A stretch of DNA of 63,899 nucleotides, the filler included, from Aduncisulcus paluster (Eukaryota), in assembly GCA_024181965.1 (NCBI GenBank). It is 19 parts of 19 records of this genome, joined end to end, with 100 filler letters (N's around TTAATTAATTAA, not from the genome) between each part and the next. Parts side by side here need not be neighbours in the genome. Positions count along the whole stretch, not along the records: positions 12,223 to 39,981 come from BQXS01000448.1; 18 more parts are not named here. One strand, 5' to 3'. Every line of letters begins with the position of its first letter. Positions within the stretch are counted from its first letter, which is position 1. A program made the position numbers and the translations under genes. The notes below the pieces were generated by a model that worked only from the letters and a program-made list of their open reading frames with translations, was not told where the DNA came from and ran no database searches. Of this stretch, positions 3,860 to 63,275 are shown one piece after another.

Positions 3860-6800
3860 TTGGGATATGAAGCCTATTGTACTTCCATAACCACTGAAGA
3901 TGCCGAACAATTAGCCTCCCTTTCAGCGTGTTTTGTTGATTCTTTCGATGGATTGTCGAATGTTTCCAACTTGAAGTCGTTGTATGTGAGTAACACAAAT
4001 TCTGGTTCCAAGATCACGATGACATCATATGACATTCGAAAGCTTCCAGCTAGTCTGGAGACTCTGACTTTGAACAATATTGATCTCGCACCTAATACCG
4101 ATTTTTCTTCTCTTTCTTCCCTGAAAGAACTCAATTTGACAAATGGTGCGATTATATCAACCAATTCAGTTTCTGTTCCTCTTTGGATGCAAGAAATGAA
4201 GTCATTAACTCCATTGTTTGACGTTGACAATAATTATGACGTTTTTTCCTCTTCTGGAGGACTCTTTCCACCCACTCTCGAAAGCATCTCCATTGCTGGA
4301 CGTGTCAACGTGTCATTTCCTTCTTTCTTCGAGAGTCTTATCCTCGATGGTGGTGATCCTCTTCCTCATTTGACGACTGTCAATCTCAGTGGAACCAATG
4401 TATATGATTTTTCCTCTCTTCCCACATCAGTAACAAATCTCATTGTTAATGAAGGAAGCAATGTCCATGGAACACCTCATTTCAGAGACTATGCAACACT
4501 TCCATCCTCACTCACATCATTAAGCCTTCAGAATAATATCAATGATCTGTCTGTGTTACCTGCACATGTCCCTTCTCTCCAGTACCTTGACCTATCAAGA
4601 AGCTCAGAAGTGGATTTCTTTTGCCAGAGTATAACATTGTTCGCCATAGATATCGATTCAATCACAAAGTTGACAGATTTGGAGAGTCTTGATCTTTCGA
4701 ATTGTGGTTTGTCCAATGATTCGTTATCCAAATTGGCTGATATGCCTCAACTGAAGGAATTATATATCAACAACACGTGTGAGAATGTTTGCAATTCTGA
4801 AACTTATGATTATCTTAAGTGTCAGAATGTATCAGATATATCCAGTCTTTCTACTCTGACAAACCTGACCCATCTGGGTCTGCATGGCCTTGAAAGCCTC
4901 GATGATATTTCGATAATTCCTACTTCTTTCCCTGCCCTTGAGTTCCTTGATATTGGACACATTCAAGAACAGATATCCATTCAATCACAAAGTTGACAGA
5001 TTTGGAGAGTCTTGATCTTTCGAATTGTGGTTTGTCCAATGATTCGTTATCCAAATTGGCTGATATGCCTCAACTGAAGGAATTATATATCAACAACACG
5101 TGTGAGAATGTTTGCAATTCTGAAACTTATGATTATCTTAAGTGTCAGAATGTATCAGATATATCCAGTCTTTCTACTCTGACAAACCTGACCCATCTGG
5201 GTCTGCATGGCCTTGAAAGCCTCGATGATATTTCGATAATTCCTACTTCTTTCCCTGCCCTTGAGTTCCTTGATATTGGACACATTCAAGAACAGATATC
5301 CATTCCAGATATGACAAATCTTACCAACTTGAAATATTTAGATATCTCTGGACTCACCAACATAGAAAATTCTTTGGCTCTCTTTTCTCCTGCAAACCTT
5401 GAGGTACTGATAATGAATGGGTGTCGAGAATATTCAACGAAGACTGACTTTTTGTTGGGTTTAGATTCTGCCACAAACCTTATCAAACTTGATCTTGGAT
5501 CCAATAACTTTTATTATGTTACTTGGCCAGATTTTACTCAATTGACGAACCTTGAATGGCTATCTTTCAATGATTGTTCTCGGTCATATTTCCCTGACCA
5601 ATTATGGGTTTCCGTGGGTTCTTTAGTATCCCTGAAATATTTAGATATGCCTGTTGTGGAGTCCAAGTTGGATATATTATCCGGTTTAACAAACTTAAAT
5701 TGTTTTCGGATAAGATGCGAATTTAATAGTTTTGAGTATTCTTTTCCATCGAGCTTGGTCCAACTAGAGATTGTGGAATTAATTTCGCCAGACACTTTGC
5801 CAGACTTCTCTGTCTTACCTAAGCTTAGGGTTATTCAACTCACTGGTGGCAATATATATATGAGCAAGTCTGTTTTGCAGGCACCTCTCTCTACTGAGCG
5901 CTTTGCATTCTATTACACTGAATATGATGATGATCTCTTTTCTTTGATGGATCTCTCCAAGATCAAGGAACTTGACCTTACTGGTAATCTTCAACATTTG
6001 ATGTGGCATTTGACAGATTTCTCTGGACTAACCTCTGCAAAATATCTTCGCTTCAATGGGAATGGAGAGGGTGGTCTGTATGTGAATCTGACGGATGTTA
6101 TTTGGCCTAAGAGTGTCCGTATCTTTGAGCTTACTTCTATTAGAGATTTTGGAACCGATTTGTCACTCTTCACCAATCTCGAGCAGGTTGTCCTCGGACA
6201 AAGTGAACTTAGTGTTGATGTCAATATGCTCTCTCCTTTCATCTCATTGAATACTCTCAAGAAAGTAACAATATCTGATACTTTTGTATCTGCTGGAATT
6301 GAGGTATTGGGCAGTATAAAATCTTTGGAACGCTTGGATTTGGCAAACGAACTTTGTTTCCGTGATCAACCACAAACTAATGTATTTGAGGGATTAACGA
6401 ACCTTCATTATCTGAGATGGAATGGAGGAAAATGCTATAGCTCAACTGTATCTTATTTTTATGAAATTGACGTTTCATCTCTTGTCAATCTCCAACAGTT
6501 AATTTCTTATGTAGGACGCTTCGATGATTATAGTGAACTTCTTCAGGTGAGATACATTGATATCTCAGAGAATCCTTATAGCTATGGCTACCCAGCTGAT
6601 ATGACTCAGTTGAGGGATTTAAACGAGTTGTGTATTCTCAATGTTCGTAATTATTCATTTTTCTATGATCTCTCCCCAATATACCATCTTCCACATATAA
6701 GGGGAGTGTATTTTGGGGGGAGTTACGTTTGTTTTGGAAATCAAAATATTGATGATTTGCAAGATCAATTCGTGAATAGCAGAAATGTTTCCTTGGAAAT

Positions 6801-7422
6801 ACCAGAACCCGAGTGTGGTTGTCCTTCTCTTGATCCCGAGGAGGGTAGTACTATTGCTGTATTTTCTGATAATATTGTGTGTAAACAGAATGCAGATTAT
6901 GGGTGGGGTCAAGTTACTTGCTCAGGTGACTCCTATGCGACATACACCAATAATACATTAACATGCACCAAGGCTGCAGGATGTGCAGATGGCTGTAATA
7001 GCACTCAAAGTTGTGTATGGAATGAGGAGTTGCATGCTGCTTCCTGCCAATGTGTTGATAGCTATGTTGGAACCATGTGCCGATTTTATTGTTATTCTTC
7101 TTACTGTGGACATGGTCACTGCACAACATTTTTCAACGAAGACAATGAAGAAGAAGTTACATGTGCTTGCGATTGGTGGTGGGAAACTAAAACGGATTAC
7201 CATAAGTGTGATAACATCTCCAACAACGGCATTTTTGTTATTGTCTGCTCATCAGTGATTGTCTTTTTGATAATTGTCTTCATTATTATTGTTAAACTTA
7301 TCCTTCCAAAGTATCGAGAAAGGAAAAAGTACAAAAGATTCCAATCAATTGATGTTCCTGGAACTCAGATCATCATGACTCCACCAATTTTTGGTGATGA
7401 CATCCTAATCAAAGAAGAATGA
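3860..7422 (+). CDS. Leucine-rich-repeat type I membrane protein (internalin-like LRRs, Cys-rich/EGF-like region, TM helix, short tail); 5'-partial, split by a 323-bp duplication
   Basis: Many LxxLxLxxN repeats; EGF-like Cys patterns (CQCVDSYVGTMC, CGHGHC); TM segment GIFVIVCSSVIVFLIIVFIIIV followed by a basic stop-transfer sequence. Confidence 0.88.
4656..5304. repeat. Direct tandem duplication, 323-bp unit with ATTC microhomology
   Basis: The sequence starting at 4656 recurs at 4979. The length is not a multiple of 3, which produces the frameshift between ORFs 3860..4996 and 4993..7422. Confidence 0.9.
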
Positions 7423-8105
7423 GAAAAAGAGGGGATTTCTCCGAAAGACATCTTTTATTGGGGTTTTGAGGGCGAATAAGTCGCCTTAAATCGATATTTT
7501 GTATCCTTTCCCTTAAAAACAATAAATACATTGATTTCGGTGGATAATTATTAACCATAAAACGGTGTGATAGAATAATTGATTGATAAACTTCCTTTTT
7601 CATTTCCAAAAGACTCAAATAAAGAACCAATAGTTTCTGAGTCAGATGGAGCAAATTCATTGATATAAAATATTAAAGGTTGATGCGGTTCCACAGGAAT
7701 TAAAGCTTTACCTCTTAATTTGTCTTTCAAAACAGCGATGGTGTATGAAGTAGCTACTTTTAGTTTATCTTTGAAATGCTTGGGGGTAGAACCAACTGGC
7801 GTTAGAATTAATATAACTATTATAAATATATTTAAAAATAATATTATATTAGGAACAAATGTTTTGTATTAACAAAGAATGGACAAGAGTAAAAAATAAA
7901 TATACAAATGACAAAAATGAAGATATTTTATGACATACCTTTGCCTGGAATTCCCATTAAAAATCAATTGGCAGGAAAACAAAATATCTTAGTGTTGTGT
8001 AATATGGCAAAAAATAGTTTTTATCAATATCAAGCGAAATACAAAAATAAAACCATAATATTCGAGAGTTAAGGAAGTTAATTTTATTATTAGGAGAGAG
8101 AAATA

Positions 8106-10881
8106 TTAGATAAAGTAGAAATAATCTTCTTGGATAGCATCAAATTGAGAAGCATTGTTAATATTCCACCTCAGCTCGGCTCTACAATCAAATTCTTCAG
8201 CAGAAGTCGTTCCACAACCGGTAGGACAGAAATACATGAATTTGAATGAATACAGATACCCACTAACAAGAGATTCACCATTATTAACGATGGATGTTTT
8301 GTTAGCATCGCTACATTGAGCAGGATCGGCATCTTCGCTGTACTCATTCAGTTCGATTAAGGGTTCATCGGTGTCCTCAGTCTCATCGAACCAGAAACGG
8401 GCAGGTCCTCTAGATATGATTTTGAAGGCCAACTCACTGAAATCTGACACATCTGAAGGAAGTTTGATCCAACCTTTGATAGCCATGGCAATGTGATCGC
8501 TTGACCCAGCCGTAAACCTGATGACATCTTCGTCATACTGAATAATAACGTTCTTTCCGAGTGAAGAAGGAAGAGTCATGTCAGTGTCAACACTGGGGAA
8601 ACTGCTAGGGTTTGATGTACTATATACAGCAACATAAAAATCGACAATAAGACCTTGGTGACCTTCGAACAAGACGTAACGCCAGTTCTCACCATCATCA
8701 ACGAATGCTGGTTGACAGAACAGAAGAGAGAATTTCCTAGGATTTAAGAACCCAGACAAAGTCTCATTCTCGACGTCGGTATAGTAAACAACAAGAGCTC
8801 CAGCCATATCAGCGTTACATTGGGGCAGAGTATACTGCGTGAATGTGGCCAATTTAATACCATGAACACGAGGAACACTCAACAGGGCAGAATTGGCAGT
8901 GGCATAGATAGTAGAACTTCCATTAGATTTGGATATTTCAACATTCTTCTTAATGAACACAGTCCTTCCTTTTCCATACATAGATAGATCAAGAGTTCCC
9001 ATGGCATTCCCAACCTCATCGGAGTCCACAAAGGCAGGGGTTGACAATGTTTCAACCATAGATGCTGAGAAATAGTTATATTCAGCAGAATCATTGGCAT
9101 ATAGCCCACAAATAACAAGAAGACCGTCAACGGCGAATAAAGTTCCGAAATCTTCATCTTCACAAACATTTATAACTCCCTTATCCTCAAAGACGAGTGG
9201 AGAGACAGGATCTACGAAGGTTGTGGTACTGACAACGCTGCTATCGCTTGAGCTATTATTCCTCAAATGTAAACCAGGCGGTAGATCAGTAGTAAATTGG
9301 GGCCAGTTGTTGGTAGTGGTTGGGAAATTACCAAGAACAAACTTTTCATACTTACTGTTACTGAAATCATCATTTACACGCCTCTGAACAAGTCTATTTT
9401 GTCCATCAATGAACAAAGAAGTGGTGTTCTGTGTGTTAGGTGTGATAAAATCTTTATCAAAAGCAGTGTCACAATCTATTTTTGGAATCCTCAAAATACT
9501 CCCACTGGTATCGAACAAGGGGGATCTGAAATACTGAGAATAAGGATACTCGTCAGAATTGATACCTCTATCATTGACTGTACTATTGGTGCTTCCGATT
9601 CGAATCGCAGAGGGCGTGAGAGAGGAATAATCGAGATGAGAAAACCCAGATTGAAGGTAAGGTTGGACACTGAACCCATCACTACGATCAAACGCAAGCA
9701 ATCCAACGTCTCCGTCATCGACCTGAACATCGATAGGGATGAAAAGTTTCTCAACATATCCAATTGTACCGTTAGCAAGGTACACAAGTGTATCACGATC
9801 AACAGCTTCAAGAGATCCAATCAGAACCTCACTGACATAATCATCCACGGCCGCTGGAGAACCAGAAGAACCATATCCAACATACATCTCACTTTTCTCA
9901 GAGCTATTTAAATAGATTGTACCTCCTTTCGCAACACTAAAATCACTGTCGGTGTTTCCACTGTAACCTGGAGCAACGGTCATCAGAGTCTTACTTGGAA
10001 GCGTTTCAGAATAGACAGCAATACGTCCTCCTCCTCCTCCAAACTCAGTGTCATAGATCCCACCTTCTTGACCACCACCAACAGCAGAGATGACATAACC
10101 ATACTCCCAGACAATGTCAGCGGCAGAAGAGAGATCAAGCCAGATGGATCCTCCTCCTCCTCCACTCTTTCCAAGCATTCCAGAGCCTCCATCAGCTCTT
10201 ATCTCAGCCTGAGGTCCAATGGTGATACTTCCTTCGTTCTGCACGGTAAGCTTGATGATTCCTCCTCCACGACTATCGTTGTATCCACCTTTCCCGTAGG
10301 AAGTGGGTTTGGCAGCAACACCTGTGAGGTTATCAGTGGAACAGTGAGAAACACACCCTCCCTGACCTGCGTGTGCACCTCCTCTCGCGGCAGATGGGAT
10401 GGCAGCAACTTCACTTTCTCCCATTCCAGATACATCAAGCACACCAAGAAGCTCAATCGTGGTAGCGCTAATGGTCAAACGACTAGCCCTCAGCTCAGAG
10501 GTTTCAGGTAAGACAAATCCAGTTTGACTGATAGTAATACCAAGCCCTTCTTTCACAGCGAATGACTTTTCAGGCATCAATCTCCACTCTTCGGGGAATT
10601 CGGCAGGAATATTGGTGAAATCATTGTCAGCAACGAACAAAGTACAATCTCTATTACAAGGTAACTCGAAGAAAGTGAAATTACTGTATGCTTTACCAAT
10701 GATATAGAAGAGACCTGAACGAACCACTCCATCAAAGTTCATGAATGATGTGTTATCGGGAACGGTTGTACCTGGGAATGTACCAAGACTGACTCTCTGT
10801 TGACACATTCCTACATAAAGGATCTTTGACTTCTCGAAGTAGAATGTACCGGGACAGGCTTCTCCACTGTGTTCGTCTCCT
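8106..10881 (-). CDS. Large putative extracellular protein with Gly-rich GGG(R/S)I repeats and a C-terminal PA14-like domain (5'-partial)
   Basis: Frame is open to the contig edge. Repeats RGGGIIKL, GGGGGSIWL, GGGGGRIAVY. The C-terminal IKGWIKLP...FKIISRGPARFWFD...LVSGYLYSFKFMY...LRW fits a PA14 pattern. Confidence 0.65.
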
Positions 10882-10982
10882 NNNNNNNNNNNNNNNNNNN
10901 NNNNNNNNNNNNNNNNNNNNNNNNNTTAATTAATTAANNNNNNNNNNNNNNNNNNNNNNNNNNNNNNNNNNNNNNNNNNNNC

Positions 10983-12122
10983 TCTTCATGGAATTTATTT
11001 ATGAAGAATTTTACCGTCTACCGAGCAAAAGGTGGTGAGCTGGGTTGGAGAGCTTTGGTGGAACCAAATTTGCTCGAGGCAATCTATCTAACAACAGAAA
11101 CGAGCGAGGAAACCCCAGAAGATGCATTGAAAGCTGCGGTGACAGCTTCGTTCGGGGCCCACTCCACCCAGGAATTCTACGACCGTTTAAAACGGGTGAA
11201 ACTGACGAAACTCTCCCAGACACAACTGGTCACTTATGTGGCACGATTCCGGGAGCTAGTCACGACGAATACTGAGTATGGTGACGATAAAACGATTGTT
11301 GAGATTTTTGTTGACAATTTGGGAAGTGACCGCCTCAGTGATAGAGTCCGATCGGAGGTTGATACTGCTGGAAAGCATAAGGACCTGAAATATGCTATGA
11401 AGCGGGCTTTCGAAGAACTGAGAGAGATGTTACTCATGAAGACTGAAGTCATGAGACATGCTGCTGCATTCGGTCTGGACATTCGAGAACTTAAGCCGAC
11501 TAGGAGGAAAAGACGTTTTTCTGGAGAAAAGCAACCAGGTCAACCCTCACCGGCAGGACATAGAAGTCAAACAGAAAGGAAACCTATACGGTGCTTTAAT
11601 TGTGGTAAGGTCGGCCACAAAGCTTCTGAATGCCCCTTTCGGAAGGCCAACCCTAAGTCACAAGACAAGAAATCCATGAAAGCAAGAGTGGCGCTGAACA
11701 AAGAGTCCAGTAAAACTTGTGAACAGGGTGAGGAAGAAGTGGTGTTAGCACTCCTGGATTCAGGTTGTGAACACAGTATCATGGACATCCGGATAGGGAG
11801 AACCCTAGAACCGATTGAGAAACAGGCTCAATGGGTAGATATAATTATGGCTGATGGTAGTAGCTGTGGTGCCAGTGAACGCTGGTTATTCCGAATCAAA
11901 GCACGGGGTGCGATGGGCTGTGATTTGTTCTTTACAGAATGGTTTATCATGCTTGATTTGGGGGAGCATAGTGAGATTGGGATGTATCTTTGTTGGGAGT
12001 GCATTCAACGCCTCGATCTTTTCGGTGACTGCAGGTTTCGAAGAGAGGAGCCCGATGCAGATGATTGGTTCGAGGAACCAGAGGAGGTTGACATCTCAGA
12101 GGAACTGACATGTGATGCTGAC
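10983..12122 (+). mobile_element. Ty3/Gypsy gag-protease fragment
   Basis: CCHC zinc knuckle CFNCGKVGHKASEC, and aspartic protease motif ALLDSGCEHSIM in the same frame. Confidence 0.92.
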
Positions 12123-12222
12123 NNNNNNNNNNNNNNNNNNNNNNNNNNNNNNNNNNNNNNNNNNNNTTAATTAATTAANNNNNNNNNNNNNNNNNNNNNN
12201 NNNNNNNNNNNNNNNNNNNNNN

Positions 12223-13023
12223 CACAGATTCGGAAGAGTCCTTTTTGTCACCAATCAATTGACCTATCGCATTCAATTGATTGGATATTTCTCTTATTGT
12301 TGAGAAACCGTTTTTACATCCGTCGAGCTTTAGTAGATCGCCCCCATAGCGCTGTAATCTGAATTTATAAATGGGGATGGACTCTTTCACCCATTTCAAG
12401 ACGGATTCGGCCATTTGCCTGGCCCAAAAGACAATCACTTGACTTAAATTATGGGTGGTTCCATATTTCTTTGGGTCGGACCACCACAGTGGACACAGAC
12501 TTCCTTTGATTTCTCTACCCCTCTTCGTTGCTTGAGGTTTTAACAAACAACAACAACATTCATCAATTTTTTCCTGTAATGGGAGGGGGAATCCCTTTCT
12601 GAGGTTTGGCCGGGTTTGGCCGGAAGGGGTCGGAACTCTATCTGCGAAGAGGGCGTCACAGCAGGAGAGGTAAAACAGTGGGTTATACACCCACCTCGTA
12701 TATTTGTCGGCCATTGAGCCAGCAACCACGTTTGCTACCAGAGAAGATAGTCTGGTGCAGCGATTTGCTGCGACACATTCTTCTTCGATTCTTTTTAGGT
12801 ATTGGGGATTAATTATCCTCCTTATACCACATTTTAAAGTGACATAGTTGTCTTCTGGGCGTGGTTCTACTTCTGGGGGGTCGGGTTCGTCGTGATCATC
12901 ATGTTGTTGATGATGTCGTCGCTCTGTTATATATATTAATAGAATATAGCAGAAAATTATTAATAAATGTTATATAGAATTAAACTTAAATGAAAACAAT
13001 TAATAATAATGAAACATACTCAT
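12223..13023 (-). CDS. Putative Fanzor1-like (eukaryotic TnpB-derived) protein, N-terminal part; exons 13023-13020 and 12923-<12223
   Basis: ATG A|GTATGT...AACAG|AG splicing gives MKRRHHQQH...NYVTLKCGIRRIINPQYLKRIEEECVAANRCTRLSSLVANVV...NPLFYLSCCDAL...NLSQVIVFWARQMAESVLKWVKESI. By eye this matches the order and spacing of Fanzor1 WED/REC motifs. RuvC is not in the contig. Confidence 0.55.
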
Positions 13024-13491
13024 TTTAAGAAAAACTATTTCTTGAAGAAGAGATTTTGGCGACAGAACGGGGAAAAAATTTGTATATGTGAAACAAAAAC
13101 TGTATATTTACTCAGTAGCTTCGTACTAGCCTTGTACTTTGGTAGGCTCAGGTATTTATAAGGAGAAACAACTCTTAGAGATATTGTTATCAATCCGCGA
13201 TGAATCTCTTAGTATTGGGCAAATCAGGATTGTGTCCAACCGTATTTACTATGCCAGAGGGATACATCATTGGCAAAAGGAGGCATTTGGAAGAATAAAT
13301 TTAATTTTCATCTCCATGGCTCTATTAAGCAAGCAGATAAAAATAATAAATGAATAAGGGTATCATAGGATATTAATTTTAACGTTTTTAGAATTTTGAA
13401 AAAGTCGCAGTGCGACATAGTCGCAAATAAAATTCATCTTAAACAATTTTTCCCTTGATTCAAGAAATATCATCAGGTCTTTTGGCATCGA

Positions 13492-14229
13492 ATGCCGATC
13501 TTTCTTGGTGGAGATGATAAATATAAAAGTGAATTAATTCTCCGTTCTCGAGAAGCCGAAGAAAGATTCCTACCCATTACTATATCCAAACCAAAATTAG
13601 AAGGGGTATTTTCTGAATCCAATCAAAAGAATTCCGTTAAAAAACATTCTGTGGAATCATCTGACACTGTTGTATGCCATTCTGATCATTTATATGGCTC
13701 TCCCATTTCTCGGTCAGAATCATTTTCTCTCTCTCAAATACATGAACTTTTTCATTATAAACTAAAAGAAAAATCATATGGCGCGTTAGATATGTGTCTT
13801 TCTCCATCAGACATTGATTTTTTGGATGAAGTGTGTGCTCATGAGTGCATTGAGGCATTTAATTTCATAAAATCAATTGTTAAAGATACTGTTAGCATTT
13901 CTATTTCAAAGGAAGCCGAAAAAAAGAAACATATTGATAAATTTAAACATGGGAAAAGAAGTGCTTCTTCAGCTATTTCCTTTGATGGTAGTGATGATAA
14001 AATGACTGAAAGAGAAATTATAGCAACCAATCTAAAGTCCAATCCAGGTATTATAACAGAAACAGTGTCTCTTCTTGAAGACCCTTTCCCCGAGTTTAAA
14101 ACAACAAAATCGCCGCTAGTTTTCACCAAACTCAAGAAAATCTCAAGATATACGAGTGTATATCCGCAAATAATGATTGAATATGCAAAATTAGCTGTGG
14201 CAAAGGAGAAAGAAAGAGACGTCAAATAA
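13492..14229 (+). CDS. Hypothetical protein (245 aa)
   Basis: ATG-to-TAA ORF flanked by AT-rich intergenic DNA; no motif recognised. Confidence 0.7.
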   Translation: MPIFLGGDDKYKSELILRSREAEERFLPITISKPKLEGVFSESNQKNSVKKHSVESSDTVVCHSDHLYGSPISRSESFSLSQIHELFHYKLKEKSYGALDMCLSPSDIDFLDEVCAHECIEAFNFIKSIVKDTVSISISKEAEKKKHIDKFKHGKRSASSAISFDGSDDKMTEREIIATNLKSNPGIITETVSLLEDPFPEFKTTKSPLVFTKLKKISRYTSVYPQIMIEYAKLAVAKEKERDVK

Positions 14230-14351
14230 CGTTATATTTGATGAGTTTGACATTTTGAAATTGCTTGAATAAACATAGATTTTCTATTTTGCTATAGCCC
14301 TTATCCTATCTTCTTCTTAACGAGCTGAAAGGTAATTCATGTGTTGTTTTG

Positions 14352-17300
14352 ATGGTAAAACAAACAAAAAAACAAAATACCAAGGGAAAATCTTCAAAAA
14401 AGAAGAATACAAAGAGTATGTTTTCCTAATATGCATATTTACAATTTCTTTTGCTAATTTGAATGTCTTATCTCATTCCTTGTTATTCAATGATATTATG
14501 AACTATATTTATTAACAAATTTGGCATTCATATTGTGTTAAAAATAATATTCTGGTTTTTTTGCAGAAAAAGTATCCCCTAAACCTTCAGGTGCTGATAC
14601 TCCGTCTGAACGAAGTTCAGACTATGAGGGTTCTGCTGATGACTTCATAATTTCCAAAGAATATGATGATGAATCTTCTGAGTATAGCGTTGAGTCTGAA
14701 TCTTTTGATTTTACCATTGGAAAGAGACGTTCTATTTCCAAGCCCATTAAGCGAGACATCCCATTTCAGGGTAAGAAACTTAATTTTATTCAAAGACTTT
14801 GTAACGATCTTCATGTGTGTTTTGAAAACCATACGGAACCATCGAAGAAAAACTTAATAGATCTTGTTATTTCTCTCGGTTCATCAAAAGTGCCCCAAAT
14901 CAATGTTTTACGTCGAATTCTTATTGAAAACAGTGAAGATATTTCCAATTTGATCTTTGAGTTTGTATTTGAAGAGATTTCCCACTTGTGTTCCAAGTCT
15001 TCTTCGAAATCTCCTTCTTCTGTGTCGAATATCCCAATGTATTCTAAAAATAACGTTTCTTCTCAGTGTTTGTTGTTCTGTGTTGGTCATTTATGCCAAT
15101 TATTCCCCCAATCTATTCCGGAGGCATGCATTGGTCATTTAAAAGGATTCATGTCGCATTCGAACCCCATTGCTCGTGAATTCGGCGTTTGTTTGTTTTC
15201 ACTACTCCTTTGTATGCATTGCGATAAAGAATTTTATTGCCAAGGTTTAGTCCACTTCACCCAGCCTTGTTCCTACATTCTTTCACCTGAAATCAGTGCG
15301 AAAAAGACTATTTCGGTGGGATCCGAGTCTAATATTAGTCTTCTCGAACAATATTACCCCTCTTTTCCATCAATGAATCTCTCAGATGCACAGGTTGTTC
15401 TGAAAGAGCTTCAGGGACCTTACCAAGATATTAAGGAAGGAGATGTTTCTCTCAAAGAAATCAAGGATTCCGATGAACATAAAAAGCAAGGAAAAGAGAG
15501 GGAAGAGAAAGAAGAGGAAGAAGTGGGAGACGAGAAAAGTGAAGATTCTGAATTTCTTGAGGTTGTGAGAGATATTAATTCCAATAAGCCCATTGATTCT
15601 GCTGGATCCATCCCCTTTTCGATGCCCATGAATTCCTCTCTCACTTCCCTTAGTGACACTAGCCCTTTCTCCATCCTTGACATGTTCCCCACTTCGCTCT
15701 CATCTCTTCTCCCTTCCTCTTCCCTCCCTTCTCTCATTACCCTCTTCATTGATCGTCTGTGCGACACCGATCCCTCTGTTCGGGAGTGCACGTATCGTTG
15801 CGTTAGAGTGTGTGGTTTGTGTGAAGGTGTGTTCTTTGTGAAGGGAGAAGAAGCCCTCAAAAGAATGCAAGAAAACGAACAGGAAGACATTGTTATCATT
15901 CAAGGTAAGAAAAAGAACAAGAAGCTTAACAAGAGTGGTTCTTTTATGAAAAAACAGATAAAGTCACAAGAGAAGAAATCTTTCACAAAACGATCGAATT
16001 CAACTTCTCTTGATATTAATGACCTCTTCCAGTTCTCTAGAAAGATATTATTTGCCCTCCTCGCCTCTCTTCCGACCTCCTATGGAAACCCTTCCGCTCT
16101 TAGAGAAGCAATTCGTTCCATCTGTCATGTTGTCTCATCCACGATATGCGGAATGCATGTCTTCAACAAGGAAAACAGATCCGATTCGCAGGAAAATAGT
16201 GGACCCAATTCAAGCCAGCCATTGAGATCAACACGAGACTCCAAGACAGCCCCTTGGACTCTCGGGGAACGTCTGACTATTTTTCTCTCCAGAGTGTGCG
16301 ATAGGATGCGAAAGACCCTTGAAAAATCGATAATGACGACCCATACAATTGGAGTTTGTGTTTCTTTAACGTCTCTTCTAGATATTGTTTCTGCAGCCAT
16401 GAAACAATATTCACCTAGTGAGCACTACGGTGTATTTGCCCATCTTTCTCATATGTTTGTGTCAATCCTAAATACTCTGATCTTCAGGGAGTCTAGTCAC
16501 AACTGTGAAGAAGCTGGGATATGTGTATTACATGCTTTGTGTTCATACAGAAGTCCATCTCCATTGCCATCCCTCACTCAAGATGCTGTTCCTGCCTATC
16601 TGACGCATCTTCATCGATTGAAAGAGCTTGATACCGACAATAAGCGACTTGATAGTTGGAGAAAACAATTGTATTCCTTCAATGACACGTCCAAAGATGC
16701 CATTTCCAATTGTATTGTGGAGTGTGTTCGCTTGCTCGTTTCCTCGAGAGTTATGAGAGATGAAGACAAACGAGAACAAATGAGGACTTCTGTGGATACA
16801 TTCAATCCTTCCTTGCATCCCTCCTCATCCATTGTTCCTTTCCTTCCTCTGTTCCAATTCCTCGTTCATCTCAACCATTTGGCTGACTTCTCAAAGCAAT
16901 TCTGGGCTGTCAGTTTCCGTGAAATTAAAACCCTTCTTGCTGACCGTCGAGCCAAGCGAGATAGAGAACAAGATGAAGAAGAGGAAAGAGGAGAAGGGGG
17001 AAGTGTGAAGAAGGACATAACTGATTACTTGGATAGTGATGCTCTTAGTGGCAGTGGGATGACAAGTATCTTAGCCTCATCTTCCCAAATCAATGAACAA
17101 TCCTCAACCGCTTCTTCCCAGCAAATCAACAAGAGGAAAAAGGCTCTTTTCATCAAGATCTGCCATGAACTGAATGTTGATAAGACCTCAAGGAAGAACA
17201 TTTGGGATTCCATTGAATCGAATCGCGTGAATGTATCCAAATATATGCGAAAGAGTGGGAAAATTCTGATCACGATTGAAGAAGAAGAGATAGAGAGGAT

Positions 17301-20300
17301 TGAGGACTGTGTCAAGGGCAAATCGGGAGATATATTATCTGTGGAAAGACCATGCATCCAATCCATGTTCCCTCGAGAACCATTATCCCCTGCATTGGCC
17401 AACTTTCTCTCGTATCTCCATTTTTCATGTATATTGCCCAGGAATCTGCTTACATGTGTGACCAAAGAGATTAGAATGCTTTGTTTGTCACCGTTGCAAG
17501 GCAGTTCTTCAGATCCTAAGACCTATGATAATCTTGTTGATGCCATTAAGAACCTTCCAAAGATTCATTCCCATGTGCAGCCCCAATTGTTAACATTCTC
17601 CTGGATTTCTTTCATTATTGCCAATCCTGTCAGTGTTTCTCAGGGTCTTTGTTCACACGACATTGATCGTGTCAAAAAGATATGCCTCCTTGTAATGGAC
17701 AACACCATCGCTTTGCTTTCACGCTGGGTGTCCCATTTGTCTATGATGTATTCTTTACCTTTGGACAAGGCCCTTGAGGCAGAAACAGCTGATCCATTCT
17801 CTTGTTTGGCTCCTCCTGAGAGTATTATCCCTCTTGTGTCGAATTCTGATCTTTTATTCGATCATCGCATGCAGTGGGTCCAAAATATTGTCGTAAAATG
17901 TCTTCAAACCCCCGTGGAAGATTCCAAGGAGTCGACAGAGGCCTTCGAGGTTGACAGATCCGCTGTTTATAATACAATCCACAGACTTTGCAGTATTAAT
18001 AAGTGTATTTCCACTTTATTGTGTTCGTTAGAAATGTTCTCTCTTCCGACGCCATCATTCCTGACCCTGCTCTCCTCTTTCCTTCCAATTAACCAGCGTA
18101 ACGTTGGAAGAAACAAGGTTATTGGTTCTGTTTCTGGTCTGTTCGATTCCATCTCCTCCCTTCTCCTCTCATTTCCAACTCCCTTGATGTCTGAACAACT
18201 GTGCCATTTACTAGGAATGTGTATTGAACTCAACTCTTCTTCTCGTCAAGATCCCTTGTCTCTCGTCTCATCCCCAGAGATCCAAATGTCTCCCCTCATC
18301 CGTCGTGCCTGTGGACAGCAGAAGAAGAACGAAGCTCTTCTCTCTCTCACAAGGAAAATGACCCAATATGTGTTCCCACAGACTATTTCTGCCACTAAAA
18401 GTGATACTAAATCTTCCCTCCACTCAGAGCCCCCATTCATGTTTTCTCTTACTATCCACCCGTTGTTGATTCTTTCCTCTGCCATTAATGCTCTTTCTCC
18501 CTATTCTTTCCCTGTTGAACTGAGTTCTCTGATATCTGCTAACGTTTGGAAGAAATGTATAACTCTTTCAAGAGATACAAAGGATTGGAACACAGGAACT
18601 TCAGCCAATCCAAGCCAGAGAGGCGAAGAAACTGATGCAGAAGAGGAAGATTCAGAGAATTCAGCTGGTTTTGTGACCCCTGATGCAGAAGAAGAGAAGA
18701 ATGAAAAGAATAAGAGTGCTTCTAATGATAATATTGATAAGAAAGAAGATTCTATAACCATGAAACCTGTCCGGTTATTCCTTCATTCCCTCTCAGGGTT
18801 GTTCTCTTTCTTCGTGTCTCAATGCTTCTCTTTCCAGGGCCAAGGCGTGAAACAAGAGCATGTATCAACGATTGAACACAACATTATCCTCTCCCTCGAG
18901 TGGTACGGTTCCGCCAGGACCTGGGGTTTGAAAGGATTTAATCCGTCGCTCTGTTTGACATTGGCTTCGACTGTCCGAGCAATGGGAATGAAAGCCCTCC
19001 TCTCTCTCTTCCTTAATGATTCAACGTACCGTCATCTGAGTGCCCATGCCATCCGGCTGCTTTGCGTGGCTTGCACTGAAGGTAGTGAGTGTGTGAGAGA
19101 GTGTATTCTGACACATGTGATTGATGTGGCCTACAGCGACTGTTCTCCTCGAGCCCTTGGTCTCTTGATGCTCCTGGATAGTGCATGTAGTTCATACTCG
19201 ATCCCTTCCAATTCAATACCGGAGTTCAGAGCTTGTACATCGATCCATGATTTTACTTTAGCTCATATATTGACGCTTACTCACTCGAATACTCACTGTC
19301 TGCGAACCATCAAGCATCATTTACTCGAGTTCACTGCCACCCGCTTCCCATCTCTCGTTGCAGACATCCACTCTGGTCGTAAAGTCATTGAACGTAGTGC
19401 CATTCATAATCTACATAAATTCATCTCCATGACCCTAAATCGTATGTATGCGACCTTTGTTGAGGTCAAGAAAAAGAAGCAAGAGAGAATCATTGTTCCT
19501 TACCTTCCAGACAGTGTTCTTGGCCTCTTTATTGCTGGTTGGAGTGATGCCGTGTGTGAGGACGATGGAGAATATCTCAGATACATTGACCCATTCGTCT
19601 CGATCGTTGGGTTTGAAAACGATCAAGAAAAGAATGTCTCAAGTCGTGTCTCTAAGAAGACTCCAAGAGGGAGAAGGAAATCTATGTCCTCCTCTGTTTC
19701 TAGGCATTCACCTAGTTGTACAGCAGTTTCCACTCCATCTCTAAACCTTCCTTCTCCTCCTGGCATTGTATTTACATCAACTTTCATCCATCTTTCACAC
19801 ATCCACTCGAAAACTCTCATGTTTGTCCTTGAATCAATGTGTAGAGCTCATCGTAACCCACATTTATTCTCTCTGTTGAATTCCACCCTAAGATATATCT
19901 GTCAGAGTACGTCAATTGGTCGCACAGATCAGAGGACTCACTTAAAGAAATATCCTGAAACGACTTCTTCTGCCGTGGAACGTNNNNNNNNNNNNNNNNN
20001 NNNTCTAGGCATTCACCTAGTTGTACAGCAGTTTCCACTCCATCTCTAAACCTTCCTTCTCCTCCTGGCATTGTATTTACATCAACTTTCATCCATCTTT
20101 CACACATCCACTCGAAAACTCTCATGTTTGTCCTTGAATCAATGTGTAGAGCTCATCGTAACCCACATTTATTCTCTCTGTTGAATTCCACCCTAAGATA
20201 TATCTGTCAGAGTACGTCAATTGGTCGCACAGATCAGAGGACTCACTTAAAGAAATATCCTGAAACGACTTCTTCTGCCGTGGAACGTGCTATTGTTCAG

Positions 20301-62063: not shown

Positions 62064-63275
62064 TCACATATCAAAGGCTGTCCAGAGCTTCGAGAGCTGA
62101 GAGGCAGAATAGGGGCATTTCCGACCTTTCAGAACAGACGGGGGCAGTGTGTGAATAAGAAGAGCAGAGTCATCCTCAGCGTATGAGTCAAAGTTCCTAG
62201 CATCTCCAGGACTGGTCACCCGAGGGATAATCGGTGGACGAACCATACGAACACGGAGCCAGCGCCACTCCACACCTTTGAACCAAGGGTGTTTGAGGAC
62301 TTCTGTGGCACGGATACTGCCGAGACGCTGGGCCTTGTTAGGATTCAAAAGAGCCCGAAGGAAAGACACGGTTGTCTTGTCCCAGGAGGAAGGGAAGTGG
62401 ATTCGGCCTTGCAATACCTTTTGATATGTCTGTTTGGTGTTGGCACCGTAGAAAGGAGGAACTCCAGCCAACATTTCATAAATCAGGACTCCAAAAGCCC
62501 ACCAGTCGGCAGCAAAGCTATGTCCGCTACCACGAATAATCTCTGGGGCTAGGTATTCAGGGGTTCCGCATAACGTATATGTCTGGTCTTCAATTTTTTT
62601 AGCAAATCCATAGTCAGCAAGCTTGATATGACCTTGCTTGTCGAGGAGAATGTTTTCCGGTTTCAAATCACGGTAAATAATATGTTTGGAATGAAGATAT
62701 TCTAGAACAGTAGCTAATTCAGCCGCATAAAACCTTGCGACTTCGAGGGGAAATTTGCGAGCACGTCGAAGATAAGAAAATAACTCACCACCTTGAACAA
62801 ATTCTGAGAGCATATGAACGTAATCAGAATCTTGAAAAGAAGCTTGTAAAGAAAGAGTAAAAGGGTGTTGAGTGATCTCTTGCAAAACTTTTAATTCAGC
62901 CAGGATGTGATCAACTTGAGAAAGAGCAATCAACGATTTTTTATGGACAGACTTCAGAGCAAAAAACTCTCCGGTCTTTTTATATTGAGTCAATCGCACT
63001 CTCCCTACAGTACCGGTACCAATAGTCCGTATGTGTCGAAAATCAGATAATTTAGCTAAAATTGAAACAAAGTAATATTTGAAGATGTAAAAAACAAATA
63101 AAACAGAAGAATCGCCAAAAAAATTGTTTTAAATGAAAAATAAAATCAATATAACCAGTTGTTGTGAGAATGTCATACGAGGAAGAAAATCAAAAGAAAT
63201 TTGATAAAAATACATACCATCTTTTGGAATTTTTCCAACTGAAGTTGAATGATCATCAGCAGAAAGCTGAGTCAT
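62064..63275 (-). CDS. cAMP-dependent protein kinase catalytic subunit (PKA/PRKX-like); intron 63056-63217
   Basis: Spliced MTQLSADD...AKLSDFRHIRTIGTGTVGRVRL; YRDLKPEN, DYGFAK, TYTLCGTPEYLAPE, DWWAFG and NFDSY. Confidence 0.93.

Follow-up and report, generated by a model that had tools for sequence, protein, structure and literature searches.

A putative Fanzor1-family gene fragment in the fornicate metamonad Aduncisulcus paluster

Among eukaryotes, Fanzors are, to our knowledge, the only RNA-guided DNA endonucleases yet known, and compact genome editors are being developed from them. Excerpts of two published descriptions place the Fanzor omegaRNA at the 3' end of the element and cleavage beside a target-adjacent motif (PMC10432273, PMC10530073), and part of a third gives the superfamily motif as D-X(125,275)-[TS][TS]-X-X-C4-X(5,50)-RD and describes the N-terminal halves of Fanzor proteins as highly variable (PMC3627910). 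Here we analyze a locus at positions 12223-13023, minus strand, of a 63,899-nucleotide (nt) stretch of DNA (the window) from the free-living anaerobic protist Aduncisulcus paluster. An earlier interpretation made from the DNA alone, which we call the sequence-only reading, proposed that this locus may be a hidden spliced gene for the N terminus of a divergent Fanzor1, probably from a metamonad or fornicate. Sequence comparisons indicate that a Fanzor1-family gene, multi-copy and transcribed, is very probably represented here by the first 235 codons of one of its copies. The divergent Fanzor1 identification is thereby supported, by way of paralogy, through the RuvC and TNB regions of a longer A. 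paluster protein (P0003), and not by way of the motif blocks on which the sequence-only reading had relied.

Paralogs of the fragment and the place of the family

The 235-amino-acid (aa) product of the spliced gene matches, letter for letter, the GenBank entry "hypothetical protein ADUPG1_000820, partial" (P0001) of A. paluster, which bears out the earlier guess that the host is a fornicate metamonad. Among 5.8 billion clustered proteins, the fragment has four relatives, all from A. paluster: P0001 itself and P0002 at similar length (2 of 96 candidates) and the longer P0003 and P0004 (2 of 484 candidates). Because four paralogs at 79-90% identity exist in A. paluster, the open reading frame (ORF) of the fragment is not a chance frame. 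P0003 (559 aa) is 90% identical to the fragment over 164 aa (query residues 72-235, E 1.3e-94). It begins at the equivalent of Met72 and continues into a RuvC fold and a Cas12f1-like TNB zinc ribbon. P0004 (81% identity) shows the same N-terminal region followed by T-D-G and then G-V-D-P-G, after which the model degenerates. Since both P0003 and P0004 carry this junction, contiguity of the N-terminal and RuvC halves is seen at two loci.

The motifs of P0003 follow one another in the order L-P-P-I-L-P, T-D-G-V, G-I-D-P-G (D296), Y-G-D-A-G, V-D-E-Y-H-T-S-K-L-C-P-Y-C, R-K-C-T-D-G-C, H-R-D-S-L-A-A-L-N-I-A, and R-P-P-E-F. The superfamily motif can be traced from D296 to T479-S480, with 182 residues between, through the cysteines C483/C486/C502/C506, and on to R512-D513 after 5 residues. 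Full copies had been expected to carry the RuvC D-E-D residues and a zinc finger, and both are found in this paralog (D296, E476, and D513; a C4 ribbon). P0003 matches Pfam PF07282 (Cas12f1-like TNB domain) at 37.7 bits against a cutoff of 26.3, and P0005 matches it at 51.2 bits; the UniRef label of P0003 is likewise Cas12f1-like TNB domain protein.

An AlphaFold2 (AF2) model of P0003 has an overall predicted local distance difference test (pLDDT) score of 55.8 and is confident only over approximately residues 290-545. With this model, Foldseek gave 31 matches in PDB at E<=0.001, of which those listed were Cas12-family, Fanzor, and TnpB chains, including AsCas12f (2.9e-07) and SpuFz (3e-06). 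Residues E476, T479, C483, C486, C502, R512, D513, N519, and I520 are invariant in 15 aligned sequences. G430-D431 occupies the canonical RuvC-II place, and a glutamate in V-D-E-Y (E476) is present in 15 of the 15 sequences; a relocated RuvC glutamate is described for Fanzors in the part of Jiang et al. cited here (PMC10530073).

A HMMER search with P0003 against 1.84 billion representatives returned only 29 proteins at E<=0.001, comprising A. paluster paralogs (P0001, P0002, and P0004-P0010, with P0030 from a further search) and environmental proteins, five of the latter 613-741 aa long. The family comprises at least 10 gene models in A. paluster, and its nearest relatives outside the species are metagenome proteins. 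Sixteen of the 29 were scanned against Pfam; 13 of these list PF07282, 12 above the cutoff, and the three without it are A. paluster models. A profile built from the five long environmental proteins matched SpuFz1 (8gkh) at 7e-30 and GtFz1 at 1.3e-17, with TnpB reaching only 1e-05. With a 15-sequence profile that included P0003, the match to SpuFz1 was 1.5e-32 across positions 10-544, followed by GtFz1 (4.5e-23), PpFz1 (1.9e-20), ApmFz2 (4.6e-10), and ISDra2 TnpB (4.7e-05); TnpB and Cas12f matched this profile only at the zinc ribbon. A profile of 12 environmental (non-Aduncisulcus) sequences, among them the five long proteins of the first profile, gave P0003 a score of 112.5 bits, residues 228-538 falling on positions 346-654, and P0030 a score of 79.3 bits. 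By this transitive link, the comparisons support a Fanzor1-like A. paluster family that appears closer to Fanzor1 than to Fanzor2 or TnpB.

Logan contigs of two runs from the same sample, X1 (DNA) and X2 (guessed to be RNA), were placed on the window at 80% likeness. DNA contig depth across the gene is 4,250-19,084, and the adjoining unique contig lies at approximately 1,293. Although depth does not equal copy number, these values agree with several gene copies. X2 contigs overlie 12223-12932, identical or near-identical ones covering parts of 12223-12886, and P0005 is a peptide from an independent transcriptome set. The gene is likely transcribed, a statement that holds for the family and not for the window copy itself. 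We also observed that T at 12781 is C in all contigs there from both runs and that T at 12778 is A in a near-identical copy; the window consensus may be a blend of copies at these positions.

One member of the family, encoded outside the window, is P0010 (ADUPG1_006463, 1846 aa), which is Fanzor-like over residues 810-1099 (E 2.5e-09 to P0003) and has a weak Phage_integrase match, below the cutoff, at residues 1332-1420 (E 0.041). P0010 may point to a link with a Crypton-like tyrosine recombinase, or else it may be a fused model.

The fragment, its coding frame, and its start

The gene lies on a 27,759-nt contig (12223-39981), the same length as is given for the contig of P0001, and reads outward across the contig end at 12223 (Table 1). 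The frame, the AACAG acceptor, the 96-nt GTATGT intron, and the 4-nt exon of the sequence-only reading are all present in the sequence as described, and the second exon is 100% identical to P0001. GenBank P0001 begins M-K-R-R, implying the micro-exon. GenBank already lists this gene model, together with its micro-exon, as a hypothetical protein; because the spliced product is identical to ADUPG1_000820, the gene was wrongly called hidden. The annotation took its gene models from Braker2, guided by RNA-seq hints, and was based on a MaSuRCA assembly whose N50 is 4.6 kb (PMC9933649). Left unspliced, the second-exon frame is stop-free back to 12969, with an upstream stop (TAA) at 12972-12970, and its earliest in-frame ATG is Met72 (12714-12712). 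At the other end, the frame runs into the linker at the contig end at residue 235, so the contig does end before RuvC, as the sequence-only reading had said. Searches by tblastn with P0001-P0004 found no further copy inside the window, and region 12223-13600 had no second copy in the window. Rfam on 12223-14500 gave one sub-threshold snoRNA-like match (20.5 bits against a gathering score of 44).

Table 1. Coordinates of the putative Fanzor1-family gene fragment and of the adjoining linker (positions along the window)
Feature	Position	Strand	Detail
First coding exon (annotated)	13020..13023	-	4 nt: ATG 13023-13021 + A 13020; read directly
Proposed intron, 96 nt	12924..13019	-	GTATGT 13019-13014, AACAG acceptor 12928-12924
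Second exon, partial coding sequence, residues 2-235	12223..12923	-	Stop-free frame into contig end
N-terminal extension before Met72	12715..12846	-	Y-V-T-L-K-C-G-I strand-like motif (12823-12846) + first predicted helix
Helix N-L-S-Q-V-I-V-F-W-A-R-Q-M-A-E-S-V-L-K-W-V-K-E-S-I, residues 160-184	12376..12450	-	Within predicted helix 159-193
Artificial linker, N44 + TTAATTAATTAA + N44	12123..12222	.	Marks contig end truncating the gene

Paralog contigs from X1 and X2 overlie 12736-12932, and their differences were placed on the window frame. A paralog with a 5-nt deletion has nine differences; six fall within the structured residues 29-52 (three synonymous and three V/L-to-I), and the remaining three are non-synonymous and lie in the acidic tail. 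For a second paralog, with an in-frame 9-nt insertion, 12 of the 21 differences are listed, and nine of those lie within the structured residues 31-54, six of them synonymous and three conservative (A/S, V/L, L/I). This predominance of synonymous and conservative differences indicates that frame 0 is under purifying selection ahead of Met72 and, with it, that the N-terminal extension is coding. Given such constraint upstream of Met72, the P0003 and P0004 models, which start there, are probably approximately 70 residues short.

The intron itself has the GTATGT and AACAG signals and the annotation in its favor, but a contig joint across it, from 13020 to 12923, was not seen among the contigs of X1 and X2. 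X2 is without cover over 12959-13142, and the missing joint is no evidence either way. That the intron is real seems to us an evenly balanced proposition. In the contig of the 5-nt-deletion paralog (X2 depth 471), the 5 nt are missing at approximately 12878, and likeness to the window is lost upstream of 12916. A tandem ATG-ATG at 12902-12897 stays in frame to the contig end if 5 nt are deleted anywhere in 12886-12871 and otherwise meets a stop at codon 12; because the deletion brings it into frame, that paralog probably has an ordinary start without an intron. The 9-nt-insertion paralog has the same frame arrangement as the window, and its homology is kept to 12932, 8 nt past the acceptor AG. 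Two readings remain: the family may have two start solutions, or the window copy may be a frameshifted relic rescued by the gene predictor.

Contrary evidence, rival explanations, and proposed mechanism

A number of results weigh against the assignment of the locus to Fanzor1. The sequence-only reading had proposed checking the fragment itself for profile or structural similarity to WED and REC, and no significant direct match of the 235 aa was obtained. A phmmer search of PDB gave only two chance-level rows, and a profile of 12 Fanzor1-like sequences scored the fragment at -1.4 bits, with at least 10 of 1000 shuffles scoring higher, up to 3.9. The A. paluster N-terminal alignment, compared by hhalign with five Fanzor-like proteins, gave a probability of 0.2, tblastn against 30 giant-virus Fanzor loci gave only matches at E>=0.2 on the wrong strand, and the ESM Atlas yielded no usable match (Atlas model pLDDT 0.37; structure rows all at template modeling scores <0.35). 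The AF2 model of the fragment, made from a 16-row alignment, has a pLDDT of 51.7 and consists of helices only, with no strand where the WED strand is expected. It was too poor for a fold search, since so poor a model yields meaningless matches. In searches of PDB, neither P0003 alone nor a profile made only of A. paluster sequences connected to the solved Fanzors, the profile finding nothing below E 0.18. Further, P0002, P0004, and P0006-P0009 look degenerate or mis-modeled, only a real micro-exon splice would give the window copy an in-frame ATG before Met72, and this copy may be non-functional.

A Pfam scan of the 235 aa likewise found 0 families at E<=1; PF07282 is missing from the fragment because the position of that domain falls beyond the contig end. 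Given the variability of Fanzor N termini, the failed alignment of the fragment is expected and is not evidence against membership. The best hidden Markov model alignment, which is not significant, places residues 25-69 on profile positions 30-75, the expected N-terminal place, and the sole hhalign pairing, also not significant, is the L-S-Q...Q-M helix (residues 160-184). In a MAFFT alignment, Y-V-T-L-K-C-G-I lies beneath the T-T-V-I-K-C / T-F-S-V-K-C (T-h-K-C-x-h) strand of the environmental relatives, and the T-h-K-C strand, the S-x-x-h...M helix, and the L-P motif align in order with Fanzor-like proteins. The four motif blocks named in the sequence-only reading fall short of statistical significance in the profile and hhalign comparisons. 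A basic N-terminal nuclear localization signal, which it had named as frequent in Fanzor1 proteins, is not evident when the sequence is read directly, as only K2-R3-R4 is basic and an acidic, His-rich tail follows; unlike the fragment, the environmental relatives carry long K/R runs at the N terminus.

The window copy could well be a dead relic, though on balance we doubt it. The micro-exon and intron would then be a rescue by the predictor, and the original start, ATG-ATG at 12902-12897, would have been put out of frame by a 5-nt indel at approximately 12878. Consistent with this, the 5-nt-shorter paralog contig makes ATG 12902 read through to the contig end, no contig bridges the intron, and several paralogs look degenerate. 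Frame 0 is nevertheless stop-free from 12969, the second paralog shares the window frame with homology that covers the acceptor, and the GTATGT donor is as in two other candidate introns of the window that precede long ORFs. The model also comes from Braker2 run with RNA-seq hints (PMC9933649).

Very improbable, in our judgment, is that the fragment is the N terminus of an unrelated host protein, joined to a Fanzor half only by fused paralog models. Taken by itself, the fragment is not detectably similar to any Fanzor or TnpB, and fused models do arise in this annotation, as P0010 illustrates, but P0003 and P0004, at separate loci, have the same junction and motif order. The size fits as well, with 71 missing residues plus 227 residues before T-D-G against approximately 345 profile positions, and the best local alignment lies where an N-terminal region should, with the MAFFT motifs in order. 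A bacterial TnpB contaminant is scarcely credible, even though the culture contains food bacteria (PMC9933649) and the cluster of P0037, which is among the 12 profile sequences, includes proteins labeled "[bacterium]". Against such an origin, the 27.8-kb contig combines a G+C content of 36-44% with very long Pfam-less ORFs and candidate spliceosomal introns, and the best PDB matches of the profile are eukaryotic Fanzor1 proteins over near full length, with TnpB matching only at the zinc ribbon. The glutamate, moreover, sits at the relocated D-E-Y place, as in the Fanzors of the cited part of PMC10530073.

If the locus is a Fanzor1-family gene, as we favor, the fragment would comprise a short N-terminal tail, a first WED-like strand, and most of a helical REC-like region. 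Because the assembly broke within the repeat, the T-D-G/WED, RuvC, and zinc-ribbon parts of this copy and any 3' omegaRNA would be missing. The complete protein would have approximately 630 aa, judging from full-length paralogs and characterized Fanzor1 enzymes. By analogy with SpuFz1 and other tested Fanzors, it would associate with an omegaRNA transcribed from the element's own 3' end, and guide-matched double-stranded DNA would be cut beside a target-adjacent motif by the RuvC site, formed by D296, the relocated E476, and D513 (P0003 numbering) with the C4 ribbon as support. We infer RNA guidance, cleavage, and mobility, and likewise the translation start of this copy. A bolder and rather unlikely extension is that A. 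paluster harbors a Fanzor1 lineage that is active and highly divergent and would be the first one described from Metamonada, with two start modes, a micro-exon splice and, in the paralog whose leader is 5 nt shorter, a direct ATG, and perhaps carried on Crypton-like tyrosine-recombinase elements. Were this true, anaerobic fornicates would possess working RNA-guided DNA nucleases, and a new scaffold for compact editors might become available.

Surroundings of the gene and comparison with known systems

The window consists of 19 contigs and 18 identical 100-nt linkers (N44 + TTAATTAATTAA + N44), located at 1307, 2421, 3760, 10882, 12123, 39982, and 12 other positions; because it is made of joined contigs, genes across a linker are not physical neighbors. 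A Gag-like ORF at 11001-12122 (+), bearing a CCHC zinc knuckle (PF00098, E 1.5e-06) together with a protease-like D-S-G motif, reaches its contig end and is a retroelement fragment. We considered this Gag/CCHC ORF as part of a Fanzor element and rejected it because it sits on a separate contig. The rest of the 27.8-kb contig carries long ORFs without Pfam matches (five neighboring ORFs, none above cutoff) and candidate GTATGT...AG introns ahead of long ORFs, a picture that fits a divergent protist nuclear genome.

Two candidate GTATGT...AG introns lie at 14416-14566 (+; 151 nt) and 63056-63217 (-; 162 nt), each directly before a long ORF, one of 1826 codons and the other of 329 codons and kinase-like by eye (G-T-G-x-x-G-R-V). 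They suggest that A. paluster introns are 5'-biased and use a GTATGT donor. A short intergenic repeat upstream of the gene, at 13281-13464, has a DNA contig depth of 55,000-350,000 compared with approximately 1,293 for adjoining unique DNA, many loose contig ends at 13300-13442, and a small palindrome near 13395-13425. This repeat could be the end of a miniature inverted-repeat transposable element, a satellite, or a common regulatory element.

A literature search found no paper linking Fanzor with metamonads or Giardia, or TnpB with Aduncisulcus, although supplementary taxon tables may list these proteins; the one paper in which Fanzor and Trichomonas both occur is, judging by its title, a review of AlphaFold 3. 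The host lists in the cited parts of PMC3627910, PMC10432273, PMC10530073, and PMC10711439 name no metamonads. A metamonad lineage would widen the known Fanzor host range, and its presence in A. paluster would extend this transposon-borne nuclease family to a little-sampled eukaryotic lineage. So divergent a set, with a REC region that cannot be aligned, would also offer material for studying the evolution of guide-RNA binding. The window holds the N-terminal third only, and its value is as a pointer to the family.

Among known systems, giant-virus bins (IMG/VR GVMAG contigs, L001-L030) share the pattern [VI]-D-E-[YF]-x-T-S-[KQ]-x-C with the A. paluster family, and 30 of 123 pattern matches encode relatives of P0003. 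These IMG/VR relatives, many of them from giant-virus bins, are only 21-26% identical, and none matches the 235 aa; the comparison gives no sign of recent transfer with giant-virus Fanzor-like genes. Fanzor2 (ApmFz2, 9b0l) and TnpB (ISDra2, 8bf8) resemble the family in their RuvC-III and zinc-ribbon core, and Foldseek of the P0003 model lists ApmFz2 at 1.3e-04 and the TnpB-omegaRNA-DNA complex 8h1j at 2.2e-03. Both differ in that they match over only approximately 50 C-terminal positions, whereas Fanzor1 matches near full length, and in being shorter, at 408-520 aa.

The closest described systems are the Fanzor1 proteins SpuFz1 of Spizellomyces punctatus (8gkh), GtFz1 (9cer), and PpFz1 (9cf0). 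Unlike these, the A. paluster family is very divergent, with only 29 proteins matching P0003 at E<=0.001 and a REC-like N-terminal third that cannot be aligned, and the tail of the fragment is acidic where a basic nuclear localization signal would be expected. The likenesses lie in P0003, which shares with Fanzor1 the RuvC-I motif G-x-D-P-G, the relocated glutamate in D-E-Y-x-T-S-K-x-C, the C4 zinc ribbon, R-D-x-N-A-A-x-N-I, and the C-terminal R-P-x-x-F, as well as the upstream L-P and T-D-G motifs. The probable size of the complete protein, approximately 630 aa, is also like that of Fanzor1, and the A. paluster gene, as in Fanzor1, resides in a eukaryotic host genome in many copies.

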